From: an uncultured Fibrobacteraceae bacterium
Lineage (GTDB): Bacteria; Krumholzibacteriota; Krumholzibacteriia; LZORAL124-64-63
Assembly (NCBI GenBank): GCA_964476155.1
Contig: CAYYYS010000009.1
Location: 18,147 to 82,146 of the forward strand
DNA length: 64,000 nucleotides
Direction: 5' to 3'
The first letter of the stretch is position 1; each line of letters opens with the position of its first letter. Position numbers and translations under genes: made by a program. The notes beneath the pieces were generated by a model. It had not been told where the DNA came from. It ran no database searches and saw only the letters and a list, made by a program, of their open reading frames with translations. Shown here piece by piece: positions 3,747-21,774 of this stretch.

Positions 3747-6700
3747 ATGCCCAGACGTCTTATCCTCGTCGCGACCCTGATATTGATGGTCGCCGCCACG
3801 TCAGTATTTGCTACAGAGGCCCTGTTCTGCCGCTATCCGGCCATAAGTCCCAACGGGTCCACGGTGGTCTTCTCGTATCAGGGCGACCTGTGGAGCGTGT
3901 CGGCCGACGGCGGCCGCGCCCTGCGCCTGACCGCGCACCAGGCCTACGACGGCTGGCCCGTCTTCGCGCCCGACGGGGAGAGCGTGGCCTTCGCGTCCGA
4001 CCGTTACGGAGACTTCGATGTCTACGTGATGCCGGCCGAGGGTGGCCCGCCCACACGTCTCACACACGCCGAGACCACCGACCGGCCCCAGGCGTTCGGC
4101 CCCGACGGCGACGTGGTGTATTTCTCAGCCCGCCGTCTCTTCGACTTTCCCATGGCGAACCAGATCCTGTCGGTACCCGTCACCGGCGGCACGCCCCGGC
4201 GCCTGGCCGACTTCTTCGGCGACGAGGTGGCCACCGTCGACGGTCGCACCTTCGTGGTCGCCGAGGGCCGCGTGGCCAACGGTCGCGTGCACTATCGCGG
4301 TAGCTATCAGCGCGAGCTCTTCCGCTGGACCCGCGGCGGCGATCCGGTCGCTCTGACCGAGAACCGCGGCTACGACACCCACCCCATGGTCGCGCTCGAC
4401 GGGCGGATCTACTGGCTCGGCGACATGGACGAGAGCAAGACGGCCAACGTATGGGTCATGGACGGCGACGGTGGCGGCAAGCGGCCGCTTACCGATTACG
4501 AGGGTGAGCCCGTGCGGACGGCCTCCCTGAGCACCGACGGGTCGCGTATCGTCTTCGAGCAGGGGCTGCACCTGTACGTGATGGATACTGCGGGCGGCGA
4601 GCCGCGACGGTTGAGCGTGGACGTGGCGGCCGACGCGATCGAGAATCCCGTCGTCATCGAGACCAAGACCGGCGACGCCGATTACATCGCGGTCTCGGAC
4701 GACGGCGAGGAATACGCCCTGGTCGTCGACGGCGAGATCGTCCTGATCAACAAGGAACAGGGCGGTCGCGCGACGGTAGCCGTGCCCGGTCCCTGGCTCG
4801 AAGCCGACATTTCGTTCCGACCAGGCAGCGCCGACACCCTGTTGCTGGTCAGCGACCGCGACGGGGAGAACACCGTCTGCCTGCTGGTGAGCGACGACGA
4901 CGAACCACTGCTGCGCAAGTCCCGCAAACATCGGCTGATCGAGCTGACCGACAGTAAGGATCCGTGTCACGTACCCCAGTGGTCGCCCGACGGAAAGCGC
5001 ATCGCCTACCAGCACGGCAACGGCGACCTGTATGTCATGGACGCCGACGGTCAGAACGACAAGACCATCGCCAAGTACTGGAACCTGGGCGATTTCTCAT
5101 GGTCCCCCGACGGCCGCTGGCTGGCCTTCTCGCGCCTGGACCCCGACTACAACAGCGAGATCTGGATCGTCCCGAGCGAGGGCGGCGAACCCGTCAACGT
5201 GACGCGGCACCCCGAGTACGACGAAGGCCCCGTATGGTCGGCCGACGGCACCGTGCTCGCCTGGCACACTACGCGCCATAGCCATTCGCCCGCCAGTCGT
5301 GAATACGACGTCTATGCCATGTACCTGCGCGAAGCGGATCATGACCGCACCCAAGAGGCATGGGAAATCCTTGAGAAGACCCGCGACGACAAACCCAAGG
5401 ACGAGAAGAAGGACGATGACGAAGGGGACGATGAAGAAGAGGCCGAGGAGGAACTCGTGGTCGAGATCGACTTCGATGAGATCCACCTGCGCGCCCGTCG
5501 CGTGACGTCGCTGCCCGGCAGCGAATACGCCAGCGCCATAGACCCCAAGGGCGACAAGATCTACTTTACCGCCAGGATCGTGGAGGACCGCGACCTCTAC
5601 TCGGTGAACCGCTTCGCCGAGGACCGCGAGGCCGTCACCGAGGGCGGCGTCAACCCGAGCGGGATCACCCTGGACGAGAAGGGCAAGACCTTCACCTTCC
5701 TGCGCAACGGCGCCCCCGCGACGGTCGGCGCCGACGGCGGCAAGGTCGAGTCCACCGATTTCACGGCCCGCCTGGTGGTCGATCGCCCCGCGGTGCGCCT
5801 GCGCACCCTCGACGAGGCCTGGCGTACCATGCGCGACCGTTTCTACGACCCGGACATGCACGGCGTCGACTGGCCGGCCATGCGCAAAAAGTACGGCGCC
5901 TGGGTCGCCCATGCGTCCTGCGACCACGACTTCGGCGACGTGATGAACTTCATGCTCGGCGAGCTCAACGCCAGTCACATGGGCTACCGTCCGCGCTGGG
6001 AGTCGCCCGGCGACTACGGCGACGACGGTTGGCTCGGCCTCGAATTCGACTTCACCCACAAGGGGAAGGGCCTGAAGGTGGCCCGCGTGCTGACCGACGG
6101 TCCCGGCGACAAGGCGCCCGACCGCATCCTGCCCGGCGATGTGCTGCTCTCGGTGGATGGCCGGCCGGTGGGTCGCGACGTCAACATCAGCGCAGCGCTG
6201 GAAACCCGCTCCGGGCTGCCCACATGGGTAGTCGTCAAACGCGACGGTGACGAGCTCGAGTTCCAGGTCACGCCCCGGGGCTTCCGCACGATCTGGACCC
6301 TGAACCACCGCGACGCCGAGCGCGCCAAGCGCGCGATCACCGAAGAGTCCAGCGATGGCCGCGTGGGCTACGTCCACATACAGGGCATGGGTTTTTCGGA
6401 AGTGGAGCGCTTCCAGCAGAACCTCTTCGCCGCCGCCGACGGCAAGGAGGCCCTGATCATCGACGTGCGCAACAACGGCGGCGGCTGGACCACCGACCTG
6501 ATGTTGACGATTCTCAGCCAGCCCGTCCACGCCTTCACCGTCGGCCGCGACGGCGAAACGGGCTATCCCCAGGTGGAACGCCAGCCCTTCTATCGCTGGT
6601 CGAAACCCGTGGCCGTGATCTGCAACGAGGGCAGCTACTCCAACGCCGAGATCTTCAGTCACGCCATCAAGACCATGGGCCGCGGTCCGGTGATCGGCAT

Positions 6701-6992
6701 GGAGACCGGCGGCAACGTCATCTCCACCGGCGGCTTCGGCAACCGGTACCGCGGCTACGTGCGTCTGCCCGGCCGCGGCTGGTATGTGTGGGGAGACGAC
6801 GTGAACACCGAGCGCAACGGCAAGCCCCAGGAGGCGCGCCACGAGCTGACCGGCTGCATCCCGGACCACGTTGTCGACCTGACGCCGGCCGACCGCATGC
6901 ACGGCCGGGACCCGCAGTTGGACAAGGCCGTCGAGCTGATGATCGACGCGGCCGACGCCGAGTGGCGCAAGCCGAAACGCGAACCGAAGTAG
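3747..6992 (+). CDS. Tricorn protease homolog: N-terminal TolB-like beta-propeller repeats, PDZ domain, C-terminal S41 peptidase domain. Secreted.
   Basis: ~1080 aa. Signal peptide MPRRLILVATLILMVAATSVFA after AGGAG. Repeated PDG/SPDG propeller blades. PDZ-like GLKVARVLTDGPGD..GDVLLSVDG. S41-like IIDVRNNGGGW and ICNEGSYSNAEIF. Acidic linker KDEKKDDDEGDDEEE. Confidence 0.85.
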   Translation: MPRRLILVATLILMVAATSVFATEALFCRYPAISPNGSTVVFSYQGDLWSVSADGGRALRLTAHQAYDGWPVFAPDGESVAFASDRYGDFDVYVMPAEGGPPTRLTHAETTDRPQAFGPDGDVVYFSARRLFDFPMANQILSVPVTGGTPRRLADFFGDEVATVDGRTFVVAEGRVANGRVHYRGSYQRELFRWTRGGDPVALTENRGYDTHPMVALDGRIYWLGDMDESKTANVWVMDGDGGGKRPLTDYEGEPVRTASLSTDGSRIVFEQGLHLYVMDTAGGEPRRLSVDVAADAIENPVVIETKTGDADYIAVSDDGEEYALVVDGEIVLINKEQGGRATVAVPGPWLEADISFRPGSADTLLLVSDRDGENTVCLLVSDDDEPLLRKSRKHRLIELTDSKDPCHVPQWSPDGKRIAYQHGNGDLYVMDADGQNDKTIAKYWNLGDFSWSPDGRWLAFSRLDPDYNSEIWIVPSEGGEPVNVTRHPEYDEGPVWSADGTVLAWHTTRHSHSPASREYDVYAMYLREADHDRTQEAWEILEKTRDDKPKDEKKDDDEGDDEEEAEEELVVEIDFDEIHLRARRVTSLPGSEYASAIDPKGDKIYFTARIVEDRDLYSVNRFAEDREAVTEGGVNPSGITLDEKGKTFTFLRNGAPATVGADGGKVESTDFTARLVVDRPAVRLRTLDEAWRTMRDRFYDPDMHGVDWPAMRKKYGAWVAHASCDHDFGDVMNFMLGELNASHMGYRPRWESPGDYGDDGWLGLEFDFTHKGKGLKVARVLTDGPGDKAPDRILPGDVLLSVDGRPVGRDVNISAALETRSGLPTWVVVKRDGDELEFQVTPRGFRTIWTLNHRDAERAKRAITEESSDGRVGYVHIQGMGFSEVERFQQNLFAAADGKEALIIDVRNNGGGWTTDLMLTILSQPVHAFTVGRDGETGYPQVERQPFYRWSKPVAVICNEGSYSNAEIFSHAIKTMGRGPVIGMETGGNVISTGGFGNRYRGYVRLPGRGWYVWGDDVNTERNGKPQEARHELTGCIPDHVVDLTPADRMHGRDPQLDKAVELMIDAADAEWRKPKREPK

Positions 6993-6998
6993 GGGAGA

Positions 6999-7469
6999 TC
7001 AGCGCCCGGCCGTAAGCCGGGAGGCGAGCGGGTCGGGCAGGCCGGCGGCACGGATCTTGTCGGCGGCGGTGTGGATGTCGTAGGGGACGCGGTGCATTTC
7101 GATGCGCCGCGTCTTCGTGTCGTAGACGACGTAGGCGGCGCGCGGATCGAGATCGCGGGGCTGGCCCACGCTGCCCGCGTTGATCAGGTAGCGCGCGTGT
7201 GATTCCAGATCGAGGGTCTCAAGCATGTGCGTGACGACTTTCTCGCCGTGCAGCTCTTCGTTGTTGGCGGCCATGTCGTCGTGATTGCCCTTCACCACCG
7301 CGTCGCAGGTCTCGCGCACCAGCTCCAGACAAGCGACCGGGTCGGCGCCGTAGCCCACCACGTCGCCCAGGCTGTACCGGGCGTCCACACCCTGTCCGTC
7401 GGCGTGGGCGAGCACGGCGGTCAGCGCTTCCAGGTTGGCGTGTATGTCGCCGAGGATGGCGTATTTCAT
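6999..7469 (-). CDS. Metallophosphoesterase (YfcE/MPP family).
   Basis: MKYAILGDIHANLEAL, GDVVGYG and GNHD motifs. GGAG 6 nt upstream of the ATG at 7469. The longer ORF to 7970 lacks homology in its N-terminal extension. Confidence 0.8.
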   Translation of the reverse strand: MKYAILGDIHANLEALTAVLAHADGQGVDARYSLGDVVGYGADPVACLELVRETCDAVVKGNHDDMAANNEELHGEKVVTHMLETLDLESHARYLINAGSVGQPRDLDPRAAYVVYDTKTRRIEMHRVPYDIHTAADKIRAAGLPDPLASRLTAGR

Positions 7470-7586
7470 GACGACTCCGGAATTCGCCTGGTGCCGGATC
7501 GCGCGGGACGCTACCAGTCTAGCGCAATGAAGTGTGGCGCGCCATGTCATTACATGGCACCGTGAACGGCAGCGAAAGGATTGACC

Positions 7587-7949
7587 ATGGACCGCAGCAA
7601 CCCCGCAATCCGCGTGATGATGATGCCGCGCGACACCAACGTGCATCGCACGATCTTCGGTGGCGTGATCCTCAGCCATCTCGACCAGGCCGGTGTCATC
7701 GGCGCGCGTCGCGCCGGGTGCCGCCACATCGTGACCGTCGCCATGGACAAGGTGGAGTTTCACGAGCCGGTCCACGTGGGTGATCTGGTCAGCTTCTATA
7801 CGGATGTCTTCAAGAAGGGCCGCACGTCGATAACCATACGGGTCTGCGTGGAGGCGAACCGTTTTGAAACGCGTGATGACGTGGCGGTGACCAGCGCCAA
7901 TATCACTTATGTGAACATCGATGCGGAAGGCCGGCCCGAGCCTATCTGA
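7587..7949 (+). CDS. Acyl-CoA thioesterase, hotdog fold (YciA/YbgC-like).
   Basis: Hotdog thioesterase pattern VMMMPRDTNVHRTIFGGVILSHLDQAG...DKVEFHEPVHVGDLV. AAAGGA RBS 6 nt upstream of ATG 7587. Confidence 0.8.
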   Translation: MDRSNPAIRVMMMPRDTNVHRTIFGGVILSHLDQAGVIGARRAGCRHIVTVAMDKVEFHEPVHVGDLVSFYTDVFKKGRTSITIRVCVEANRFETRDDVAVTSANITYVNIDAEGRPEPI

Positions 7950-7966
7950 GCGATTCGCCGGCAAGC

Positions 7967-8383
7967 TCATAGACCGATTGATATCGTATCGCCCTCGCTT
8001 CCTTCGGCTGGATGCTCTCCGTCCTCGGCCAGAACCCGGACTCTCACCGCTCGCTCGGCCCGCGGCCAGCTCCCCTCGATCACTTCACCCGATACGGCCA
8101 CTTTATCGCCCTTCATTTGCGCCACGTAACGCGTGAGCCGGTATTCGCCGTCGCGATAGCCGTAGCCGTCGCCCGCGTCCTCGTAAAGCACACCCTCGGC
8201 TTGGCCGTGCGCGTCCAGACAGACGATCAGTTCCAACGCATCCAGAGGTCGCTCGTTCGACCATTGCATGATTGGTCCCACCGGCAGGACGTGCCCCGCG
8301 CCGAGCATCAGCACGGGCAGATCGAGGTCGGCGCCGTCGCTGTCGACCAGCGAAAAGGCTCGCCACACACCGTCCGGCAGCAC
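7967..8383 (-). pseudogene. GH31 alpha-glucosidase family C-terminal fragment (~150 aa). The catalytic domain is absent.
   Basis: GH31 C-terminal signatures GAGHVLPVGPIMQ and LYEDAGDGYGY. The minus-strand frame hits a stop at about 8441. No upstream frame encodes a GH31 catalytic domain. Confidence 0.5.
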
Positions 8384-8439
8384 CGGTTCCGGCGCGCGCC
8401 CGGGGGAGGTGTTGCAGGAAACGAGCAGCCCGTCGCAGC

Positions 8440-10206
8440 CTCATCGACAAGGCGGAGTCCTGCGAGCCCCAGCTCGTGCTGGTCTTCGACGACTGGGAGG
8501 CGCTCGCCGGCAAGAGCTTCGGCGCGGTCTCGGGGGAGATGGAACCCAACGACAACCCCAACCACTACCACAAGACCATCCGCTGGCTCGCCAACCACCC
8601 CTGGGTGGAGATCGTCACGCTCGCCGACATGACCACTCGCGCCCAGGCCGAGCCGGGGAACTGGGTCATTGATCAAGGCACGCGCACCGACCTGGACGTG
8701 ATGACCTACCACTGGCTCCAGCACGCCTGCGAGGACAGCTATCACAATTGGTACTACAACGGGTCGGGTTTTCCGGGCAACGAGCAGAGCTTCTACGATC
8801 TGGTGCCGGTGATCAGCGGCGAGCAGGGCGACTACCACGCGCGCGGCGTCACGCCCCTGGCCGACGGACCGCCCATCCCCAGCGGCCTGTCCTTTGGCGA
8901 CGTGAACTCGCCGGGCGGCCTCATCCACGAAACCTGGGACGCCATCGCCGCCATGACGCCGGGCCATCTGCGCACGATGGCCGAGGCCTCGTTCACTGCC
9001 ATGATCTACGAGACCGCCTGGCACGAGGAAGACAGTACCGACTACCAGGACAGCGATGGTTTCGGCAACTGGCTCTATCCCGACACGACCTGGGACGGGC
9101 TTAGCGGCTGGGCCCTGCGCCTGCACAATCACATTCGCGACGCGGGGGGGCTGGTCCTGGCGTCGGCCTGGGCCGATTCCGTTCGCGCCGGGCAACTGAC
9201 GACCTACGCGGCGCCCCGCGCCTTCTTCCTGGATGCCGATCTCGACGGTGTCGACGAACTCGTCTACCGCAACGGCAAGGTCTGGACTCTCTGGCAGACC
9301 GTCGGCGGTCGCTGCCTGCTGGCCGCGCGTTGGAACCCCGATCGTGACGACACCGTCCTGCTGCTGGGCAACCCGCTGGCCAATCCCAGCGCGCCGGGCG
9401 AGGAGGAGTACGCCGACGAGCGCGCCACCCGCTGCTCCGGCTTCAAGGTGATGAACAGCGGCTACGCGGACGACGATTTCCTGGTGATCCCGACCGGGAC
9501 CGCCATGCAGGCGGTTTCTAACGACGGACTGATTACCGAGACCCATACCCTGACCGCCGGATCGGACACGCTGACGACCGCGGTGTCCGAGACGGTCGGC
9601 GGCGACCTGTACCTGCGCTCAGGCCTCAACCCCAACCCCTGGTCGTTGCTGCTGTACGGCCCCGACCCGCTCGTGCGCGAGTACGACGGCGCCTCGCCCG
9701 AAAGCTCGACATGGTACCGTCTGAGTAATGGCGAGGCATCGATCACCGTGCTCTTCGATACCGCTACCTTCGTCCCCGCGCCCATGCACACCGGCTGGGA
9801 CCGTCGCGATCTGGCACTGACCGAAGAGATCGAGCTGTACGGTGACGGCACCTTCACCTTCCGAACCGTCTTCGGCGCCGGCGATGATGATACCGCCGCG
9901 CCCGATGGGCCGCCTTCATCCGATCGCGTCGCCGCGCGTATGCTGCCGCCGGCGCCGAACCCCTTCAACCCGGCCACGGAGATCCGCTTCGTGCTGGATC
10001 GCTCGGCTGACGTGGCGCTCGATATCTACGCGGCTGATGGGCGGCATGTCCGCACGCTCCAACGCGGTGTATTGCCGGCGGGGGAGTCGGCGTTTGTCTG
10101 GCATGGTCGCGACGATGTCGGGCGTGCGGTTTCGGCGGGTCTGTATCTGGTGAAGTTGAGAGCCGGGGGGACGGTGAGTTCGGCGAAGCTGATCCTTGTG
10201 AAGTAA
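8440..10206 (+). CDS. T9SS C-terminal sorting-domain protein, apparently lacking its N-terminus and signal peptide. Likely a truncated carbohydrate-active cargo protein. The ORF track extends it to 8272 through Arg-rich antisense of the GH31 fragment.
   Basis: Coherent protein from LIDKAESCEPQLVLVFDDWEAL onward. C-terminal NPFNPATEIRFVLDRSADVALDIYAADGRHVRTL...GLYLVKL sorting domain. There is no Met or signal peptide where the protein starts making sense. Confidence 0.5.
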   Translation, partial: LIDKAESCEPQLVLVFDDWEALAGKSFGAVSGEMEPNDNPNHYHKTIRWLANHPWVEIVTLADMTTRAQAEPGNWVIDQGTRTDLDVMTYHWLQHACEDSYHNWYYNGSGFPGNEQSFYDLVPVISGEQGDYHARGVTPLADGPPIPSGLSFGDVNSPGGLIHETWDAIAAMTPGHLRTMAEASFTAMIYETAWHEEDSTDYQDSDGFGNWLYPDTTWDGLSGWALRLHNHIRDAGGLVLASAWADSVRAGQLTTYAAPRAFFLDADLDGVDELVYRNGKVWTLWQTVGGRCLLAARWNPDRDDTVLLLGNPLANPSAPGEEEYADERATRCSGFKVMNSGYADDDFLVIPTGTAMQAVSNDGLITETHTLTAGSDTLTTAVSETVGGDLYLRSGLNPNPWSLLLYGPDPLVREYDGASPESSTWYRLSNGEASITVLFDTATFVPAPMHTGWDRRDLALTEEIELYGDGTFTFRTVFGAGDDDTAAPDGPPSSDRVAARMLPPAPNPFNPATEIRFVLDRSADVALDIYAADGRHVRTLQRGVLPAGESAFVWHGRDDVGRAVSAGLYLVKLRAGGTVSSAKLILVK

Positions 10207-10280
10207 GGCAAGCCGCGCCACGCAGTTACCCGTGTAAATAACGACCCGGCGGGGGGCGCTGCGGCCCCCACCTTTTTTCG

Positions 10281-11027
10281 TCACACCTCCCCAAGCCCCA
10301 TCGCCACCCCCAACCGCCCCATCATCTCCGTCGCCGCCCCCTGCAGAAAAATATCCGTCGTCCCCGCGGTAAACAGCGAAGGCTCCGGATTCACCTCGAT
10401 AATCGTCGCCCCTCCGTTGCGCGCCACACCCGGCAGCATCGAAGCCGGCGCCACCTCGCCCGTCGATCCGATCACCAGCATGACGTCACACGCACTCGCG
10501 GCCGCGAACGACTTGCTCCGCGCCGGCTCCGGAATCCCCTCGCCGAAGAAGATGAAGTTGGGTTTGAGCAACCCGCTGCATTCGCACAGGGGAGGCAGCG
10601 TGTCGAGCGACACTTCGCCCACCGGGTATGTGGCCCGGCAAGCCAGACACACCAAGGTGCGAGAGTTGCCGTGAAACTCCCACACCGTCCGGCTGCCGGC
10701 GTCGCGGTGCAGGTTGTCGATGTTCTGGGTGATGACCTCGCGCAGTATGCCCGACGCTTCCATCTCCGCCAGTATGCGGTGCGCCGCATTGGGCGCCGCC
10801 TGACCGAAGAAGTCGTAGAAGATCTCCTTGATCACCGTCCATGAATCGCCCGGGTGTCGGAGAAAAAAGCCCAGCTCTATCGATTCGGGATCGTAGCGGC
10901 TCCAGATCCCGTCGGGGCCGCGGAACGTGGGGATGCCGCTTTCGACCGATACGCCCGCACCCGTAAAGGCCACCGCGTGATGCGCGTTCAGAAGCGTTTG
11001 TGCGGCCTGTTCAATTCGATCCTGCAT
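10281..11027 (-). CDS. cobB: NAD-dependent protein deacylase, Sir2 family (CobB-type sirtuin).
   Basis: GAGVSVESGIPTFRG, QNIDNLH, zinc-ribbon cysteines CLAC...CECS, GSTGEV. GAGGGGA RBS before ATG at 11027. Confidence 0.85.
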   Translation of the reverse strand: MQDRIEQAAQTLLNAHHAVAFTGAGVSVESGIPTFRGPDGIWSRYDPESIELGFFLRHPGDSWTVIKEIFYDFFGQAAPNAAHRILAEMEASGILREVITQNIDNLHRDAGSRTVWEFHGNSRTLVCLACRATYPVGEVSLDTLPPLCECSGLLKPNFIFFGEGIPEPARSKSFAAASACDVMLVIGSTGEVAPASMLPGVARNGGATIIEVNPEPSLFTAGTTDIFLQGAATEMMGRLGVAMGLGEV

Positions 11028-11185
11028 GATCGTCCCCTCGGCTCCTGCGCCGGCCATTCCGGCGCTGCGCCCAGACTAACATGCGGACGATCACGTCACC
11101 ACGAATGGCGGATCAAGAACCATGGCCTGCAGCCGATCATATCGAGAAAACTGGCCATGGTCCTGACCCGTCGCTAGTCCAGACT

Positions 11186-11296
11186 GCGGACGAGGACATT
11201 TTGCCGCGACCGCAGGGACGCAAAACGGCCGCCTCCAGGGCGGCCGCTTTGCTTGATCGCTACACCCTGCGGCCGCGGCAACATGCCCTCGTCCGC
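11186..11296 (+). repeat. Nested-hairpin repeat element, copy D (sense orientation). ~32-bp outer stem, ACGC, GC-rich inner hairpin (CGGCCGCC-TCCAG-GGCGGCCG), core GCTTGATCGCTACA, stem partner.
   Basis: Outer arms GCGGACGAGGACATTTTGCCGCGACCGCAGGG and CCCTGCGGCCGCGGCAACATGCCCTCGTCCGC are near-perfect reverse complements. Core matches copies A and B at 13/14 nt (a single T/C difference). Confidence 0.75.
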
Positions 11297-11309
11297 ATCC
11301 GGGTAGGTA

Positions 11310-13241
11310 TCACTTCACCATGACCATCTTATGGGTGGAACTCTCGTTCCCGGCCTCGACACGGTAGAAGTAAGTGCCGGACGACAACAGGCGCCCGTTC
11401 GCGTCACGGCCGTCCCAGACGGCGGTCTGTTGACCGGCGGTCTGCGTGCCATCGACCAGGACCCGCACCAGGCTGCCGTCCACATCGAAGATCGACAGGC
11501 GAACCTGCTCGTCGCGCGCCAGCTCATACCTGATGACGGTCTCGGGATTGAACGGGTTGGGGTGGTTGCCCCGCACCATCAGCAGTTCCGGCGCCGGGTG
11601 GTCGACCGAAATGGTCGTGCCGTCCAGGTCGGTCAGGAAGCCCGTGGCCGCGTTCTGCACCTTCCAGGTTTCGTCGTTCTGCACGTAGACCGTCGCGCGC
11701 AGCTTCGAGTAGACCCAGGATTCGGCGCTGACCGGACAGTGGGCGTTGAAGCGGTGGATGCCGGGTGTGTTGGGCACCAGGAAACCATCGGTGTCCGGAT
11801 ACATGTAGCGGAACGCCTGGTCATGATAGCGCTCGCCGTTGGTGCCCACTTCGTAGACATCGTCCTCGGTGATCGCCACACGCAGCTTGAGGATCCAGTC
11901 GGCGGGAATAGGCTCCACGATTTCCACTTCGGTGATCAGGGTCTCGGTGACCGGATCCCAGGAGTGCCAGATGTTCAATGGGCTGTGATGGGTCTTGCGC
12001 GTATTGAACAGCGACGCGTATCCGGCTCCGTTGGAACCGGCGTCCACGACCTGGTCGATACGTAGGTGGGGCGCATAGTCGGCGCCGCTACCGTTGGCCA
12101 GGAAATTGTTCTGCAGCGTGTTCGCATCGTAGATGCCGTCCGAGCCGGGCCACCAGACATGCACGCGCACCAGGGCCACTTCGTTGTTCTGGCCGGGGAA
12201 GTAGGCGTCCAGGGCCTGGTTGGCTTGCGGGCAGCCGGAGCAATCCGATTGGGTCAGCAGGATGCCCAGGGGCACGTGCGGTAGGGTATAGGAATCGTCG
12301 AAAGCCGTCGCCTCGTTGTTCGACGTATCCATGTCCGTACCCAGCAACGCCACCGCATGCAGATCGTAGTACTGACCCGCGTTCGTGGTCAGGTTCGGGA
12401 AGCCGACGACCGTTTGGGTCTCGGGAGCCAGGGCGGCCACATTGACTGTTTCGTTGTACACCTGCACGCCTGTTTCCCAGATCGTGACTTCCACATCGAA
12501 GTCTTCGATGCTGCGACCGATGTTCTTCACGGTGACCTGGGGCGCTATGACTTCGCCACTGGCGAACTGTTGCTGGTCTGGCGTTATGGAAAGCGCGCGG
12601 ACATCGTGGAGCCAGGGCTCGTAGACGCGTACGTCGTCCACCCACCAGTGGTCGGCGTAGGAGCCCGTGTAACGCAGGGCGACGTAGACCGTCGGCTCGC
12701 CCGCGTAGGCGGAGAGGTCGATGATCACCGGATCACCGTCGAAGCCGTTGACCGTGTGGGTTGCCGGCGTCATGTCCGAGACGATGGCGAACGTGCCCGT
12801 GTCGGTTTGGCTGGTGGTGCTGACCATCACGTAGTGATGACTGCCCCAGTCCGCCCAATACGACTCCGTCTCGAAGAACTCGAGCCGGATGTCGGTGAGG
12901 CCCGTGAAGTCCAGGGCCGGCATGACCAGCCACTCGTTCTGTGTCGTTCCCTGTGCACCGTATTGGACGAAGGCGCTGAAATTTCCGGTGCGCGCCTCGT
13001 AGTTGCTCTGGACCCACTGGTAGGTGTTGCCCAGGTGGATGCGGTGCCAGCCCGTGGGCGGGAAGGTGCCCTCGAAGCCCTCGGTCAGGAGGTCTATGCG
13101 ACTGGGAGAGAAGGCCGGTCCGTCGGCTCGTCGGTCGGGATTGTAGACCAGGTCGTCGTGAGCGATCGCCACGGTCGTACCCAGCAGCAGAACCGACGTC
13201 AGGATTAAAACCGTACGAACGAGGAGGCTATGGTTGGACAT
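11310..13241 (-). CDS. Secreted T9SS cargo protein: N-terminal choice-of-anchor/MAM-like domain, C-terminal T9SS sorting domain.
   Basis: Signal peptide MSNHSLLVRTVLILTSVLLLGTTVAIA after AAGGAG. GFEGTFPPTGWHR. C-terminal NPFNPETVIRYELARDEQVRLSIFDVDGSLVRVL..GTYFYRV. Confidence 0.75.
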   Translation of the reverse strand: MSNHSLLVRTVLILTSVLLLGTTVAIAHDDLVYNPDRRADGPAFSPSRIDLLTEGFEGTFPPTGWHRIHLGNTYQWVQSNYEARTGNFSAFVQYGAQGTTQNEWLVMPALDFTGLTDIRLEFFETESYWADWGSHHYVMVSTTSQTDTGTFAIVSDMTPATHTVNGFDGDPVIIDLSAYAGEPTVYVALRYTGSYADHWWVDDVRVYEPWLHDVRALSITPDQQQFASGEVIAPQVTVKNIGRSIEDFDVEVTIWETGVQVYNETVNVAALAPETQTVVGFPNLTTNAGQYYDLHAVALLGTDMDTSNNEATAFDDSYTLPHVPLGILLTQSDCSGCPQANQALDAYFPGQNNEVALVRVHVWWPGSDGIYDANTLQNNFLANGSGADYAPHLRIDQVVDAGSNGAGYASLFNTRKTHHSPLNIWHSWDPVTETLITEVEIVEPIPADWILKLRVAITEDDVYEVGTNGERYHDQAFRYMYPDTDGFLVPNTPGIHRFNAHCPVSAESWVYSKLRATVYVQNDETWKVQNAATGFLTDLDGTTISVDHPAPELLMVRGNHPNPFNPETVIRYELARDEQVRLSIFDVDGSLVRVLVDGTQTAGQQTAVWDGRDANGRLLSSGTYFYRVEAGNESSTHKMVMVK

Positions 13242-13481
13242 GGCCGAATCTCCTTGGCATGTGAACAAGTGTTGGAACTCGCGAGGGTAAGACACTGTGG
13301 CCTTGATCTCTAAAATCCCTACAGACGATAGGTATTTTACAGGATTCGCCTGATATTTACAAGCCCCCTTAGATATTTAAACACTTTTTTGTCGGCTAGC
13401 GAGGTCGATGGAGTGCATGAAATCCACAAAATCCACTAAGACCGCAAAAAGGGTGTCTAACAAATCTATTCGACTACCACT

Positions 13482-14358: not shown

Positions 14359-15111
14359 GTGCTTTTTTACTCATGGAACGTCAATGGAATCCGCGCGGCC
14401 CTGGGCAAGGGATTCAGGGGATTCTTCGATGCAGAATCACCGGATGTCATTTGTTTACAGGAAACTAGAGCGTTGCCTGAGCAGGTGGATTTTGCGCGCG
14501 AGGGATATCACGCCTTCTGGAATCCAGCCGAGAAAAAGGGCTATTCGGGGGTCGCCACATTCACGCGACACGAGCCGTTGCGCGTGCAAAATGGAATGGG
14601 TATCGAAGAGCACGATCACGAGGGTCGGGTGCTGACTCTGGAATTCGGGGACTTTTTCCTGGTCAACGTCTACACGCCCAATTCCCAGCGGGATCTGGCC
14701 CGTCTCGATTATCGCCGACGCTGGGATGCCGACTTCCTGGCCTTCCTCAAGGCTCTGAAAAAAGAGAAACCCGTGGTCTTTTGTGGCGATCTCAACGTCT
14801 CCCACAAACCCATCGACCTGACCAACCCCAAGCCCAACCAACGCAACGCCGGCTTCACGATCGAGGAACGCTCCGGTTTCGACAATCTGGTCGGCGCGGG
14901 TTTCATCGATACCTTCCGCGAATTCGAGAGCGGTGGCGGTCACTATAGCTGGTGGACCTACCGCAACGATGCCCGTCGACGGAATATCGGCTGGCGCCTG
15001 GACTATTTCCTGATCTCCTCCGCCTTGCGCCCGCGACTCGCACGCGCCTGGATCCTGGCCGAGGTCATGGGCTCGGACCACTGTCCGGTGGCCATCGATC
15101 TGTCCCTTTAG
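14359..15111 (+). CDS. xthA: Exodeoxyribonuclease III (Xth/APE1 family AP endonuclease).
   Basis: MLFYSWNVNGIRAA, CLQE, NVYTPN, GDLNVSH, WTYR, SDHCPV motifs. GTG start. Confidence 0.9.
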   Translation: MLFYSWNVNGIRAALGKGFRGFFDAESPDVICLQETRALPEQVDFAREGYHAFWNPAEKKGYSGVATFTRHEPLRVQNGMGIEEHDHEGRVLTLEFGDFFLVNVYTPNSQRDLARLDYRRRWDADFLAFLKALKKEKPVVFCGDLNVSHKPIDLTNPKPNQRNAGFTIEERSGFDNLVGAGFIDTFREFESGGGHYSWWTYRNDARRRNIGWRLDYFLISSALRPRLARAWILAEVMGSDHCPVAIDLSL

Positions 15112-15437
15112 CCCGGATTATTCATGAATGAGGTGGGCTGCGGATTCGTGGTTAAGTCTGTATGATTTCAACTGATTGAGAGCTCACGTACTTCGAAGGC
15201 TCCGTGAAACCGGAGCCGGCGGCTTGATATGCTGTTTGGTCGAAGGTGAGTCGATGGGCCTGAGCACAATGGTAGTGGGGAGAAATCAGTCGCTTAGTCG
15301 AGCGACCGTCCACGCCTGACCGCTGATGTCTTGCCATTTGTCTGTAACAAATATATACTGAATTACTCTGATATCTAGATAGTCGACGATACCGGTTTCC
15401 CGGTGTCGTTTTGAATCTCCCCGGAAGGAACAAGATC

Positions 15438-15950
15438 ATGAAGAAGCTGACCATCCTGGTGACGTTGGCTGCCGTCGTCGCCTTCGCCGCCGTCGCCGTC
15501 GCCGGCGGTCCCGGCTGTTCGGCCAAGTCCCTGAAGGGCGACACCGCCAAGTCCTGCGCCGCGTCGGCCGCCGCCGCCGGTATGGACAAGTGCTGTGTCG
15601 AGGCCGCCGCCGCCGGCAAGGGTTGCTGTGACCAGAGCGCCGAAGCCGTCAAGGCCGCCTACACCAACGTTTGCGCCACCGAGGTCGCCCTGGCCGACAT
15701 GCACAAGTGTTGTGCCGAGGCGGTCCAGGTCGGCAAGGGCTGTTGCGGCAACAGCGCCGATGAGACGAAGGCCGCCTTTGCCGCCAAGGTAGCCAAGGCC
15801 AAGGCCATGTTCGCGGCCAGGGGTGACATGCACAAGTGCTGCGCCGCGGCCGTCGACACGGGCAAGGGTTGCTGTAGTGGGACTGCAGAGGAATTGAAGG
15901 CCGCGTTGGACCAGAAAGCTGCCGCGGCTCTCGAGGCTGCCGGCTCCTGA
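15438..15950 (+). CDS. Secreted Ala/Lys-rich protein with 3-4 repeats of the vicinal-cysteine motif DMHKCC....GKGCC. Possible metal-binding protein.
   Basis: Signal peptide MKKLTILVTLAAVVAFAAVAVAG after AAGGAA. Repeats MDKCCVEAAAAGKGCC, MHKCCAEAVQVGKGCC, MHKCCAAAVDTGKGCC. Followed by a hairpin plus T-run terminator. Confidence 0.6.
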   Translation: MKKLTILVTLAAVVAFAAVAVAGGPGCSAKSLKGDTAKSCAASAAAAGMDKCCVEAAAAGKGCCDQSAEAVKAAYTNVCATEVALADMHKCCAEAVQVGKGCCGNSADETKAAFAAKVAKAKAMFAARGDMHKCCAAAVDTGKGCCSGTAEELKAALDQKAAAALEAAGS

Positions 15951-15970
15951 GTCGACCCACGATTGATCGT

Positions 15971-16012
15971 CTCGTCGCCCCGCCTGGCGCACATGCCGGG
16001 CGGAGCTTTTTC
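15971..16012 (+). terminator. Putative Rho-independent terminator after the Cys-repeat gene.
   Basis: CGCCCCGCCTGGCGCACATGCCGGGCGGAG forms a GC stem (CCGCCTGGC / GCCGGGCGG, one mismatch) followed by CTTTTTCG. Confidence 0.5.
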
Positions 16013-16181
16013 GTGGGTGTTGCGCTGCTGTTTTACACGGGATGGCAAATTGAAGTCCGTGGTCCCAAGGGAGCACGGGCGTCCGTCAAGGGCGCCGCTT
16101 CCGCTAAGCGCCTCCGCCTGTTATCCTGTACGTCGTAATGATGACGTCACGCCGATCCCATCCGAACCCGAACGAGGCACC

Positions 16182-17855
<1,674 letters not shown>

Positions 17856-20012: not shown

Positions 20013-20378
20013 ATGAGGATTCTACTCACGACGACCGCGCTGCTGGTCCTGACCATCGCCATAGCCGCTGCCGCGCCCACCGGCGCCTAGCTGGATCTCG
20101 AAAACTGCGCCATGTGCAAAAACCTGACCGACGATCAGGAGCTCTTTGAAGGCATGGTGTGGGACAACCAGCTCTTCGCCAACGGAATGGTGGAGATCAC
20201 CACCGTTTCCACTCATTTCGAAAAGCGTTTCGAGAAACTCATGGGCAAGATGCAGGCGACCGGCAACAGGATGATGGCCGGCGAGCGGCTGCCCATGTGC
20301 GGCATGTGCCAGTCCTACGGCGGACCATCCTTGTGGGTGGTCCGCCTCTTTGCCGGCTCTACCGATAGTAAGCTTTGA
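20013..20378 (+). pseudogene. Small secreted CxxC...CxxC protein interrupted by an in-frame amber codon at the signal-peptide junction (TAG 20088-20090). The downstream part could alternatively be a stand-alone 88-aa CDS from ATG 20112.
   Basis: AAGGGGGAA RBS, then MRILLTTTALLVLTIAIAAAAPTGA*, continuing in frame LDLENCAMCKNLT...LPMCGMCQSYGG. TAG, TGA and TAA are all used as stops elsewhere in the window, so the standard code applies. Confidence 0.4.
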
Positions 20379-20853
20379 TCAGGCCCCAGTTCGCAGGTAC
20401 ATCGGGCTGATCAGCCACGCCCGTGGTGCCATCGAGACAGCCCGAATCGTTTGCGGCGCTGAAGATGGCCGGGCCGCTCTGGCCCACCTCTCCGACTGTG
20501 AAGACCGTGTCCACCTCGAGCCAACCCATCGCTTCGTAGTCAAACCAGCGGAAACGCAAGGTCCATGTCCCGGCCGGCACGTTTTCGACCGTGTTTTCGA
20601 GATCGAAACAGCAGATGCAGTAGCACTGCGGATTCACTTCGGTTTCGGTGATCACCAGGCGGTCGTTCTGCCAGTCCAGGGCATAGTCGAAGGGGTCGTG
20701 GCAGCAATTGTAGAGAGCCGCGTCGTGAAAGACGGTCACATCGGCGCCATCCACTTCCACGTGGATCACGTCGCCGTTCTCGCACGAGTTGTCCTGGGCC
20801 GACGCGGCGGACAGGGTTGCCAGCAGGGTGATCAGGATCAGCATCGTCTTCAT
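20359..20853 (-). CDS. Secreted Cys-motif protein, paralog 1 of an uncharacterised family (NCC ... CxCxCCFDL).
   Basis: Signal peptide MKTMLILITLLATLSAASA. Shares motifs with the adjacent gene: FHDAALYNCCHDP, NPQCYCICCFDLENT, SGCLDGTTG, IKAYY. Confidence 0.6.
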   Translation of the reverse strand: MKTMLILITLLATLSAASAQDNSCENGDVIHVEVDGADVTVFHDAALYNCCHDPFDYALDWQNDRLVITETEVNPQCYCICCFDLENTVENVPAGTWTLRFRWFDYEAMGWLEVDTVFTVGEVGQSGPAIFSAANDSGCLDGTTGVADQPDVPANWGLIKAYYR

Positions 20854-20872: not shown

Positions 20873-21382
20873 TCAGTGGTAGATGGCCTTGATGTCGCTC
20901 CATGTCGTGCTCCGGGGCTCGGGTTCGGTCGGCACGCCCGTCGTATCGAGACAGCCCGAGTTGGCCGATACGGGAGCGCCGTGTACGAAGCCCTGTCCCA
21001 CGTCGGGTACGGTGATCTGGCCGTGCCAGTCGATCCAGACGTGGGTTTCCTCGTCCAGCCAGGAGAAGGTGACCTGCCAGGGGCCCGGTTGGGCGTCGGG
21101 GATCGTCACGCCGAGGTCGAAGCAGCAGTTGCAGTCGCAGGGCGGATCGGCCGCCACGTGCTCGACGATGAACAGGGTCGCGTCGCCGAAGTGGACCTCG
21201 TAGGTGATCGGCTCGGGGCAGCAGTTGTACTGGGCCCCGTCGTGGAAGAGGTGCAGGTCGCTGGTGGCGGGATCGATCTCTACGCGGACCTCGTCGGTGC
21301 CGTTGCACCAGAGGTAGTCGTCGGCGGTGGCTGGCGCGACGAACAGAGTGAGCGTGAACAGCACTGACAGAATTGAACGCAT
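20873..21382 (-). CDS. Secreted Cys-motif protein, paralog 2 of the same uncharacterised family.
   Basis: Signal peptide MRSILSVLFTLTLFVAPATA after GGGAGGGA. Motifs FHDGAQYNCCPEP, DPPCDCNCCFDLGVT, SGCLDTTG, IKAIYH. Collinear with paralog 1. Confidence 0.6.
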   Translation of the reverse strand: MRSILSVLFTLTLFVAPATADDYLWCNGTDEVRVEIDPATSDLHLFHDGAQYNCCPEPITYEVHFGDATLFIVEHVAADPPCDCNCCFDLGVTIPDAQPGPWQVTFSWLDEETHVWIDWHGQITVPDVGQGFVHGAPVSANSGCLDTTGVPTEPEPRSTTWSDIKAIYH

Positions 21383-21774
21383 GGATCCCTCCCAGGCCAT
21401 GGGTTCCGGCGGGGGCGGCATTATGAACAGATGATATCGATATTCACGGAAATCGTCAAGAGGTTGTCTGTAACCCTCACGATGACTTGGGCTTACCTCC
21501 GCCGGAGGTGAGCAGCCACCCCATCAAAACGCCGAAAAGCACGGCGGTGACGGGATTGCCGGTGACGCCTCAGGTGGAGCCGGCGCAGCGCTGCCAGTAG
21601 TGGAAGGCGTAGCCGGCGGCGGCGCCGGCGGTGGGGCCGATCAGTTTCTTGAGGATTTTGTTCGCGTTCATCCCAACAAGATCGGCCAATACTCCGGAAA
21701 AGCAAAGAGCGACGGTTTCAACCGTCCCTCATATGCGCCGGGCTCGGGCTACCAGTACTCCGCCGACGGTCGAC

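Follow-up and report, generated by a model that had tools for sequence, protein, structure and literature searches.

What might an exported bacterial protein do whose chain is punctuated by regularly repeated pairs of cysteines? We raise this question for a gene at positions 15438-15950 (+ strand, stop codon included) of a 64,000-nucleotide (nt) stretch of DNA (hereafter, "the window") from contig CAYYYS010000009.1 of assembly GCA_964476155.1, an uncultured Fibrobacteraceae bacterium that GTDB places in the Krumholzibacteriota. The open reading frame (ORF), its translation and its homologues define the product as a secreted 170-amino-acid (aa) protein with repeats of the form CC-x9-CC (hereafter, the Cys-repeat protein). 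An earlier reading of the letters alone ("the sequence-only reading") had proposed a metal-binding or storage protein of a new type, expressed behind a structured leader. In our analysis, a role as a periplasmic metal-thiolate buffer, store or chaperone emerges as the best-supported mechanism, if one that we stop short of calling probable.

Paired cysteines in a tandem repeat

The 170-aa protein of the sequence-only reading is borne out by ORF and translation, as is its description as Ala/Lys-rich: the mature protein contains 29% Ala, 11% Lys, 10% Gly and 10% Cys, and with Lys adjoining Cys and few aromatic residues its composition is metallothionein-like. Three tandem units of 39-43 aa share the pattern M-[H/D]-K-C-C-x9-C-C. 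Repeat 1 (residues 49-87; 15582-15698, + strand) reads M-D-K-C52-C53-x9-C63-C64-D and continues into a long helix that holds C79; repeat 2 (residues 88-130; 15699-15827, + strand) reads M-H-K-C91-C92-x9-C102-C103-G, again followed by a long helix; and repeat 3 (residues 131-170; 15828-15947, + strand) reads M-H-K-C134-C135-x9-C145-C146-S and ends in the C-terminal helix. Some details of the earlier description need correction. The cysteines number 15 rather than 16 (six CC pairs plus the singles C27, C40 and C79), and the "three to four" repeats are real and exactly three. The motif G-K-G-C-C does occur in all three, as does M-x-K-C-C, while the M-H-K-C-C form thought to recur throughout is found in two units and is replaced by MDKCC in the remaining one.

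The N-terminus, MKKLTILVTLAAVVAFAAVAVA (residues 1-22; 15438-15503, + strand), combines a KK n-region, a hydrophobic core and an A-V-A (A-x-A) site with predicted cleavage before GGPGC, and carries no twin-arginine motif. This architecture is the same in the homologues, which start with MKK or MKR. On these sequence features the protein looks like one exported via a Sec-type signal. It is not a lipoprotein, as no consistent lipobox precedes the first Cys. A Shine-Dalgarno (SD) sequence, GGAAGGA (15423-15429, + strand), is read directly 8 nt 5' of the ATG, and either GAAAGGA or GGAAGGA is kept at the same position across orthologous leaders.

Homologues are few. Among 5.8 billion proteins, a single-sequence query returned 15 and a profile query 82, while only 55 matches came from 1.84 billion cluster representatives searched exhaustively with HMMER. 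A scan of one genome per GTDB species located 48 loci and a metagenome scan 53 more; these, with 6 contig look-ups, form the sample in which we compared genomic contexts. Almost all of the 48 genome loci that carry a phylum-level label are assigned to Krumholzibacteriota or Krumholzibacteriia. The others are labelled "uncultured Fibrobacteraceae", "bacterium" or "uncultured bacterium", apart from one Actinomycetota and one Fibrobacter sp. A common synteny is found at many of the loci with such loose labels, and we infer that these labels reflect coarse taxonomic assignment of metagenome-assembled genomes (MAGs). That the family is confined to the uncultured phylum Krumholzibacteriota, from whose MAGs nearly all homologues come, is a well-supported conclusion from the sequences at hand.

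Conservation within the family is concentrated on the cysteines. In the homologues there is little or no variation at any of the six CC pairs; C91, C92, C102 and C103 are invariant in alignments A1 and A3, and the CC-x9-CC spacing is kept in 130 of the 131 spacings measured. Since 82 homologues share these invariant pairs at a fixed spacing, the repeat is more than a chance pattern. Across 129 aligned repeat units from 49 proteins, conservation reaches 93-97% for the glycines flanking the second pair (G-K-G-C-C-G) and 93% for the Met at -3. The number of units per member is two or three, and their period of 39-46 residues is mostly 39 or 43. In the aligned sequences, the invariant features are the thiols and not only a hydrophobic pattern that defines a fold, and this conservation points to thiol chemistry.

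By comparison with the repeats, the stretch from the signal peptide to the first unit is variable, and it is almost always rich in Cys or His (e.g., GPGC, HCGTCG, CGSCGG, CGKKGCGTH and GHDHGKK). In eight members (L033, L034, L038, L041, L045, L046, L020 and L027) the N-terminal half is expanded into long low-complexity repeats (e.g., ACADKAA-type units, GACADKAAACADKAG or GKAACSTSAKA), in which single cysteines recur at roughly heptad spacing and bring the total to 16-23 Cys.

Predicted fold and known thiol proteins

An AlphaFold2 model built from a 16-sequence alignment has a mean predicted local distance difference test (pLDDT) score of 79.6, with values of ~90 for residues 40-170 and below 50 across residues 1-33, and a predicted template modeling (pTM) score of 0.68. 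It is all-helical, in agreement with the earlier "helical-looking" description, and consists of a short helix starting from the first CC, a GKGCCG loop and a long helix, three times over. Positions M(-3), C0, C1, A4 and L5 of the short helix share one face in a heptad-like pattern. Given this helical periodicity, the thiols of the short helix probably face the packing core, next to the CC pair of the loop.

The window protein has no significant match in Pfam or NCBIfam and no match among PDB sequences (with the single sequence or the profile) or in a Foldseek search of the PDB; with the restriction to one phylum, these results uphold the sequence-only reading in calling the protein a new type. 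Pfam was consulted at E <= 10 for the window protein and at E <= 1 for 18 family members. Homology to a known structural repeat family, which the sequence-only reading had said would refute it, was not seen above threshold: the best Pfam score belongs to Galaxin_repeat (PF24748; E 0.18, 12.2 bits versus a gathering cutoff of 28), which registers in only 1 of the 18 members. Other sub-threshold similarities are to phage T3 gene 1.05 (11 of 18 members, best E 0.0036) and Metal_resist (one member, E 0.02), and we regard all three as compositional. No Csp/DUF326 or metallothionein profile matched the window protein or the 18 members. A Tat signal of the Csp1 type is absent, the N-terminus being MKKLT followed by a hydrophobic core without RR. 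CopG (DUF411) has no Pfam or NCBIfam match, and the protein differs from it in its all-helical model and in carrying CC-x9-CC instead of CxCC. The NCBIfam model for the ArsD-related vicinal cysteine protein VcpD (NF047871) scores 6.1 bits (E 9.7) against a cutoff of 90. On these results, we place the protein outside the Csp, CopG, metallothionein, VcpD and galaxin families. Full-text literature searches for the motif strings returned nothing relevant. As far as we could test, the family is undescribed and the fold structurally novel. We also set aside a haem c site, for which the CxxCH motif is absent, and an Fe-S or HdrB-like CCG domain, which has no Pfam match and whose preassembled cluster would be incompatible with Sec export.

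Several known systems nevertheless resemble the Cys-repeat protein in part. Csp proteins hold 13-20 Cu(I) per monomer inside a Cys-lined helical bundle, and Csp1 is periplasmic (PMC7558416). They are likewise helical, with many core-facing cysteines (as we propose here) and a similar size and Cys count. They differ in placing single cysteines in CxxxC/CxxC motifs along a four-helix bundle rather than vicinal pairs in a short-helix/loop/long-helix repeat, in the Tat rather than Sec-type signal of Csp1, and in sharing no sequence or profile match. Periplasmic CopG binds a Cys-bridged tetranuclear Cu cluster via CxCC and two Met, acts when oxygen is absent, and its gene frequently neighbors copA or cusCBA (PMC7558416). 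A vicinal Cys pair with Met, a presumed periplasmic location and, at a single locus (L049, discussed below), a cusCBA-type neighbor are shared with our family; a thioredoxin-like fold with one site is not, the Cys-repeat protein being all-helical with three tandem sites and no homology to CopG. The gene for the chaperone CusF lies in the E. coli cus operon (PMC7558416), and the L049 gene stands directly upstream of a cusC-cusB-cusA-like operon. CusF, SilE and PcoE are also small periplasmic proteins. However, CusF is a beta-barrel using Met2-His-Trp, SilE and PcoE use Met/His and no Cys, and a CusF-type linkage to cus genes is seen at 1 of ~100 loci of the Cys-repeat family.

Metallothioneins, including the bacterial SmtA and MymT, share the high Cys and Lys content, the CC and K-C adjacency, the scarcity of aromatics and the expected thiolate clusters. 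They are cytosolic, however, and fold only around metal, whereas export, a high Ala content and a predicted stable helical fold that needs no metal set the Cys-repeat protein apart. Adjacent cysteines act as a functional unit, either to bind As(III), Hg(II) or Cu(I) or to undergo redox cycling, in ArsD, the C-termini of MerT/MerA, the CCxC of Cox17 and the GCCG of thioredoxin reductase, whose folds and cellular locations are unrelated to those considered here. Galaxin-like repeats are also tandem repeats punctuated by CC in a secreted protein, but galaxin is a eukaryotic biomineralization matrix protein that is neither helical nor Ala-rich, and the match reflects CC periodicity only.

Possible metal-thiolate, disulfide and redox roles

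The metal-thiolate mechanism can be set out as follows. The gene, which has a strong promoter and a terminator of its own and is transcribed by itself, would encode an all-helical repeat protein that is exported by Sec and resides in the periplasm (or is secreted). In each unit, four thiols and the conserved Met would come together where two helices begin, on the side of the short helix that is buried. These thiolates would bind thiophilic metal ions as polynuclear metal-thiolate clusters, with Cu(I) as the likeliest metal and Zn/Cd, Hg(II) or As(III) as alternatives, and a capture arm would be provided by the variable, Cys/His-rich tail that follows the signal peptide. In the periplasm, the protein could then buffer, store or chaperone metal, as the helical, folded equivalent of a metallothionein. 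The location in the cell, the free-thiol state, the binding of metal and the identity of the metal are all inferred, and we arrive at this mechanism because the soft-metal-like arrangement of thiols, the Cys/His tails and the L049 context are taken together. Vicinal Cys pairs rarely chelate one ion; typically they bridge ions in clusters, as in metallothioneins, or bind Cu(I) (Cox17 CCxC), As(III) (ArsD) or Hg(II) (MerT/MerA).

Locus L049 supplies the only metal-related neighborhood. Its gene, a genuine three-repeat but divergent member, lies directly upstream of and on the same strand as a set of efflux genes in the order OEP (TolC-like, cusC-type), CusB-like adaptor (HlyD_D23 plus the heavy-metal-binding PF19335) and CusA/CzcA-family resistance-nodulation-division (RND) pump, the last scoring 599 bits on a truncated ORF (coordinates given for the locus, 6573-6923 and 6923-12616, + strand). 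A DUF302 gene and cytochrome bd subunit II are also found upstream at this locus.

Several observations weigh against a metal-binding role. The searches turned up neither a metal-binding family nor a metal-binding fold, and the His at -2, which the sequence-only reading counted as a ligand, is conserved in only 68% of the units, the other 32% having Gly, Asp, Ser, Pro or Asn. Among ~100 loci no recurrent functional partner was seen, and all but L049 have housekeeping or unrelated neighbors (xth and glnS, or sigma factors and a beta-CASP nuclease). Within ~10 kb of the window gene there is no metal-related gene, and the metal-resistance neighbors that the sequence-only reading had suggested looking for are seen at this one locus. 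Even there, a gap of ~350 nt with a separate AT-rich promoter-like region stands between the gene and the efflux operon; it holds GC-rich hairpins and an AT-rich stretch in which AATATTCTTCA occurs twice as a direct repeat that may be a response-regulator site. An operator of a known metalloregulator was not recognized. The gene looks core and strongly, perhaps constitutively, expressed rather than a metal-induced accessory. Finally, an oxidizing periplasm, if present, would turn the cysteines into disulfides. Many of the source MAGs may come from sediment, cold seeps, hydrothermal sites or lake hypolimnia, judging by an unchecked reading of their isolate names; if that reading is right, periplasmic thiols could stay reduced.

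In a disulfide-stapled structural or envelope protein, the CC at the helix start and the CC of the loop would form two disulfides that lock the helix-loop-helix, yielding an abundant and stable periplasmic or surface scaffold. Comparators are the Cys-rich Sel1-repeat proteins of Helicobacter, the di-Cys repeats of coral galaxin and the Cys-rich envelope proteins of chlamydiae. Sec export and strictly fixed Cys positions and spacing are what structural disulfides typically show. Well under threshold, the Galaxin di-Cys repeats are the sole Pfam similarity. The gene also has the character of a core gene, its strong promoter, SD and terminator being conserved and functional partners being absent, which fits an abundant housekeeping envelope protein; the Met at -3 could be explained as a core residue and the His at -2 as a helix cap. 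Left unexplained, however, are the Cys/His-rich N-terminal tails and Cys heptad expansions, the Lys flanking every Cys pair and the cus-operon neighbor in L049. In addition, the helices are confidently predicted without disulfide information, and oxidative folding may be limited in the anoxic habitats that the MAG names, on the same unchecked reading, suggest. We consider a stapled scaffold unlikely, while taking it seriously. Alternatively, the thiols could be redox-active or carry sulfur: the G-C-C-G loops would cycle between a dithiol and an eight-membered-ring disulfide, or carry persulfide or polysulfide, in a periplasmic redox buffer, oxidant sink or sulfur shuttle. The C-terminal GCCG/GCUG center of thioredoxin reductase and SoxY, a sulfur carrier with a Gly-flanked Cys, are the nearest parallels. 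The second pair does lie in an invariant, Gly-flanked and exposed G-K-G-C-C-G loop, and both pairs sit, in the model, at helix N-termini, where the pKa of thiols is lowered. A secreted 161-aa rhodanese-like protein is the divergent neighbor in one subclade, a conserved synteny block includes thioredoxin-like and multihaem cytochrome genes, and the source habitats may be sulfidic (again from the unchecked MAG names). But the rhodanese match is itself sub-threshold and restricted to that subclade, the thioredoxin-like and cytochrome genes lie several kb away in a housekeeping block rather than an operon, neither a thioredoxin fold nor a known sulfur-carrier family matches, and no partner reductase or oxidase is evident. 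A redox or sulfur-carrying role therefore seems to us decidedly unlikely.

It is highly improbable, in our estimate, that the protein is a sensor or modulator of an envelope-stress sigma pathway, signaling thiol or metal stress to a downstream extracytoplasmic function (ECF) sigma/anti-sigma pair much as periplasmic CnrX signals to CnrY-CnrH. At many class-A loci, genes for an ECF sigma factor and a 241-aa single-pass protein do follow within ~170-230 nt 3', a 284-aa sigma-70-family gene is the divergent upstream neighbor, and the promoter bears ECF-like boxes (GGGAAC-N18-GTAGGA, or GTAAC-N18-TCTGA in the window). Yet the ECF pair is absent from the lineage of the window and from several others, where xth and glnS are found instead; a terminator separates the Cys-repeat gene from the ECF gene; the latter has a distinct motif of its own, TGTCACC-N15-CGTAT, in 26 loci; and the outer domain of the putative anti-sigma factor has no Cys and no recognizable sensor domain. 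A bolder formulation of the metal-thiolate mechanism, that of a previously unrecognized class of Sec-exported, helical-repeat periplasmic metal-thiolate proteins with three polynuclear Cu(I)/soft-metal sites, the core and highly expressed "periplasmic metallothionein" of the probably largely anaerobic Krumholzibacteriota, we offer as a tentative and doubtful proposal.

Transcription unit, surroundings and significance

A sigma-70-type promoter is predicted at 15331-15359 (+ strand), with the -35 element TTGCCA at 15331-15336, a 17-nt spacer and the -10 element TATACT at 15354-15359. It matches the consensus at 10 of 12 positions and is one of 2 promoter-like sites in 1.6 kb, versus 0.3 expected. 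When 34 orthologous upstream regions are aligned on the -10, TATAsT is invariant and a TTGnCn-like -35 (a T-G/T-G-C element) is conserved 16-17 nt 5' of it; on this alignment, a near-consensus promoter of sigma-70 type is conserved at orthologous loci. As the promoter lies ~80 nt 5' of the ATG, transcription is predicted to start near 15366, leaving a 5' untranslated region (UTR) of ~60-70 nt. The GC content of the intergenic region is ~51%, versus 62-72% in the flanks. A sigma-54 interpretation of the upstream TGGC element was rejected on spacing.

These results change the picture of the leader. The inverted repeats and hairpin of the sequence-only reading are present in the sequence, but not as parts of a single 327-bp leader: the promoter lies inside it, and the upstream part is unconserved. 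One inverted repeat, TTTGTCTGTAACAAA, falls within the promoter spacer; the other, GTCGCTTAGTCGAGCGAC, lies upstream of the -35, in a stretch for which the closest relatives (L006, L007 and L052) show no conservation. Riboswitch-like control finds no support, as a cmscan search with Rfam 15 (E up to 10, over 14900-16300) gave no match inside the leader and the conserved promoter leaves only the short UTR. Both a riboswitch and a leader RNA of known type were therefore rejected, the greater part of the 327 bp being unconserved and lying 5' of the promoter.

Around the -10, the window carries lineage-specific boxes (15344-15371, + strand), with GTAAC in the spacer and CTCTGA at ~+1. They form an imperfect dyad, GTAAC-N13-ATTAC, and their spacing also fits a sigmaE-like GTAAC-N18-TCTGA, equal to that of the E. 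coli sigmaE consensus GGAACTT-N16-TCTGA. The relatives L006, L007 and L052 share GTAAT...CTCTGA, so that this group and the window have GTAAY and CTCTGA in common. In most genomes the spacer box is GGGAAC and the box at ~+1 is GTAGGA, at the same position (GGGAAC-N18-GTAGGA; e.g., L021 5882-5911), and the two box types switch together between lineages. In ~1 Mb of loci, GGGAAC-N18-GTAGGA occurs solely upstream of the Cys-repeat gene, in 35 of 109 loci, and the 64-kb window has a single copy of the GTAAC/CTCTGA block. One possibility is that the boxes act as an operator; another is an additional promoter of ECF type that overlaps the sigma-70 promoter and would start transcription near 15378. 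L049 keeps them (TGGGAAC-N18-GTAGGGA) with ACACCA in place of TATACT, ~160 nt 5' of the ATG. An RNA stem around TATACT was rejected, since there is only a weak dyad, paired at 132 of 204 positions, whose outer A-T and C-G pairs are invariant and whose inner positions are mostly mismatched. Some loci show symmetry of the CCGAA/TTCGG or CAAAA/TTTTG type there, and it is possible that this dyad is an operator rather than an RNA structure.

The ECF sigma gene found beside many orthologues has its own ECF-type promoter-like motif, TGTCACC-N15-CGTAT, in 26 loci (L001 8611-8637, L005 8688-8714 and 24 more), which is kept even where that gene lies 2-5 kb from the Cys-repeat gene. Because this motif differs from the boxes, the ECF factor probably does not act at them, and we set aside control by the neighboring ECF sigma, the pair being absent from the lineage of the window.

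A strong hairpin precedes the ribosome-binding site, as the sequence-only reading stated. At 15385-15410 (+ strand), GACGATACCGG and CCGGTGTCGTT pair across a TTTC loop (11 pairs, including 2 G-U), followed by TTG, and the hairpin is present in both the minimum free energy and centroid structures. Against 200 dinucleotide shuffles, the window UTR without the SD has a folding z-score of -3.4, and its last 45 nt one of -3.9. For 34 orthologous UTRs the bias toward folding is modest though consistent, with mean z-scores of -0.75 in full and -0.95 for the 45 nt before the SD (t-test p ~1e-4, a significance overstated by the relatedness of the sequences); eight full leaders gave -1.5 to +0.8. A GC-rich hairpin that stops a few nt short of the SD is present in nearly all orthologues; it is conserved in position and not in sequence, with at least four different stems (CCGGGC/GCCCGG, GGAATTC/GAATTCC, GCCGGG/CCGGC and that of the window). 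The proposed attenuator fared less well. The window hairpin is followed by UUUUG and is not among the calls of the terminator scan, no competing (antiterminator) pairing emerged, and as a T-run follows in only about half of the orthologues, obligate attenuation is unlikely. We read the stem-loop as serving mRNA stability or, perhaps, pausing.

The "clean terminator" noted after the gene holds up: an intrinsic terminator at 15980-16013 (+ strand) has a 10-bp stem (8 G-C; CCGCCTGGCG/CGCCGGGCGG) with a 4-nt loop at 15980-16003, then the T-run AGCTTTTTCG. Hairpin-plus-T-run terminators likewise lie 3' of the orthologues in L001, L004 and L005.

In the window, the Cys-repeat gene sits between an exonuclease III-type gene (xth, Exo_endo_phos; 14359-15111) and the glutaminyl-tRNA synthetase gene glnS (16182-17855), an arrangement that defines one of two synteny classes. 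In a larger class, the 5' side carries genes for an RluA-type pseudouridine synthase/methyltransferase, a thioredoxin-like protein, an exonuclease, a Trans_reg_C-PD40 protein and, on the opposite strand, the 284-aa sigma-70-family protein; on the 3' side there often follow the ECF sigma factor and 241-aa single-pass protein, then a beta-CASP nuclease and, further along, a multihaem cytochrome. This class is a conserved chromosomal block of largely housekeeping genes. In every arrangement the Cys-repeat gene is bracketed by its own promoter and terminator. The 161-aa divergent upstream neighbor of one subclade (L001 7225-7710, - strand; also L009, L012, L017, L030, L059, L068 and L086) has an N-terminal hydrophobic segment and a rhodanese-like domain just below threshold (21.1 versus 22.2 bits). 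The radical S-adenosylmethionine (SAM) enzyme next to the gene in L026 and L032, a component of the AmmeMemoRadiSam system, seems to be there by coincidence.

Other features of the window deserve mention. Two tandem paralogous genes at 20359-20853 and 20873-21421 (both - strand) encode small secreted proteins of 164 and 182 aa that are 38% identical (E 4e-32), have no Pfam match and share Y-N-C-C and C-x-C-x-C-C-F-D-L, so that they too contain vicinal Cys pairs. An imperfect palindrome with 16-nt arms (AGCCCGGATTATTCAT / ATGAATGAGGTGGGCT) at 15110-15139 overlaps the exonuclease III stop codon and is not followed by a T-run. Two large secreted proteins, at 8272-10206 (+ strand) and 11310-13295 (- strand), end in N-P-F-N-P-x-T...R-Y/F, a pattern that in related loci matches FlgD_ig / Por_Secre_tail, a type IX secretion-like C-terminal domain, and that fits an origin in the Fibrobacteres-Chlorobi-Bacteroidetes (FCB) superphylum. 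By the look of its sequence, a 258-aa ORF at 10281-11057 (- strand) resembles an NAD-dependent deacetylase of the Sir2 family.

What the finding means depends on which role is correct. If the protein is a disulfide-stapled scaffold, it would be an ordinary lineage-specific secreted protein. The gene, with its conserved synteny and distinctive promoter, is a lineage marker for the Krumholzibacteriota, a phylum without cultured members and with little-known biology, and the short, regular and confidently predicted repeat makes a good target for structure determination, metal-binding assays and protein design. To our knowledge, the known periplasmic copper proteins mostly use Met and His. Should the metal-thiolate mechanism be right, vicinal cysteines at helix N-termini in a tandem helical repeat would represent a new type of structure for managing extracytoplasmic thiophilic metals, and such a thiol-rich folded design would suit anaerobes with a non-oxidizing periplasm.

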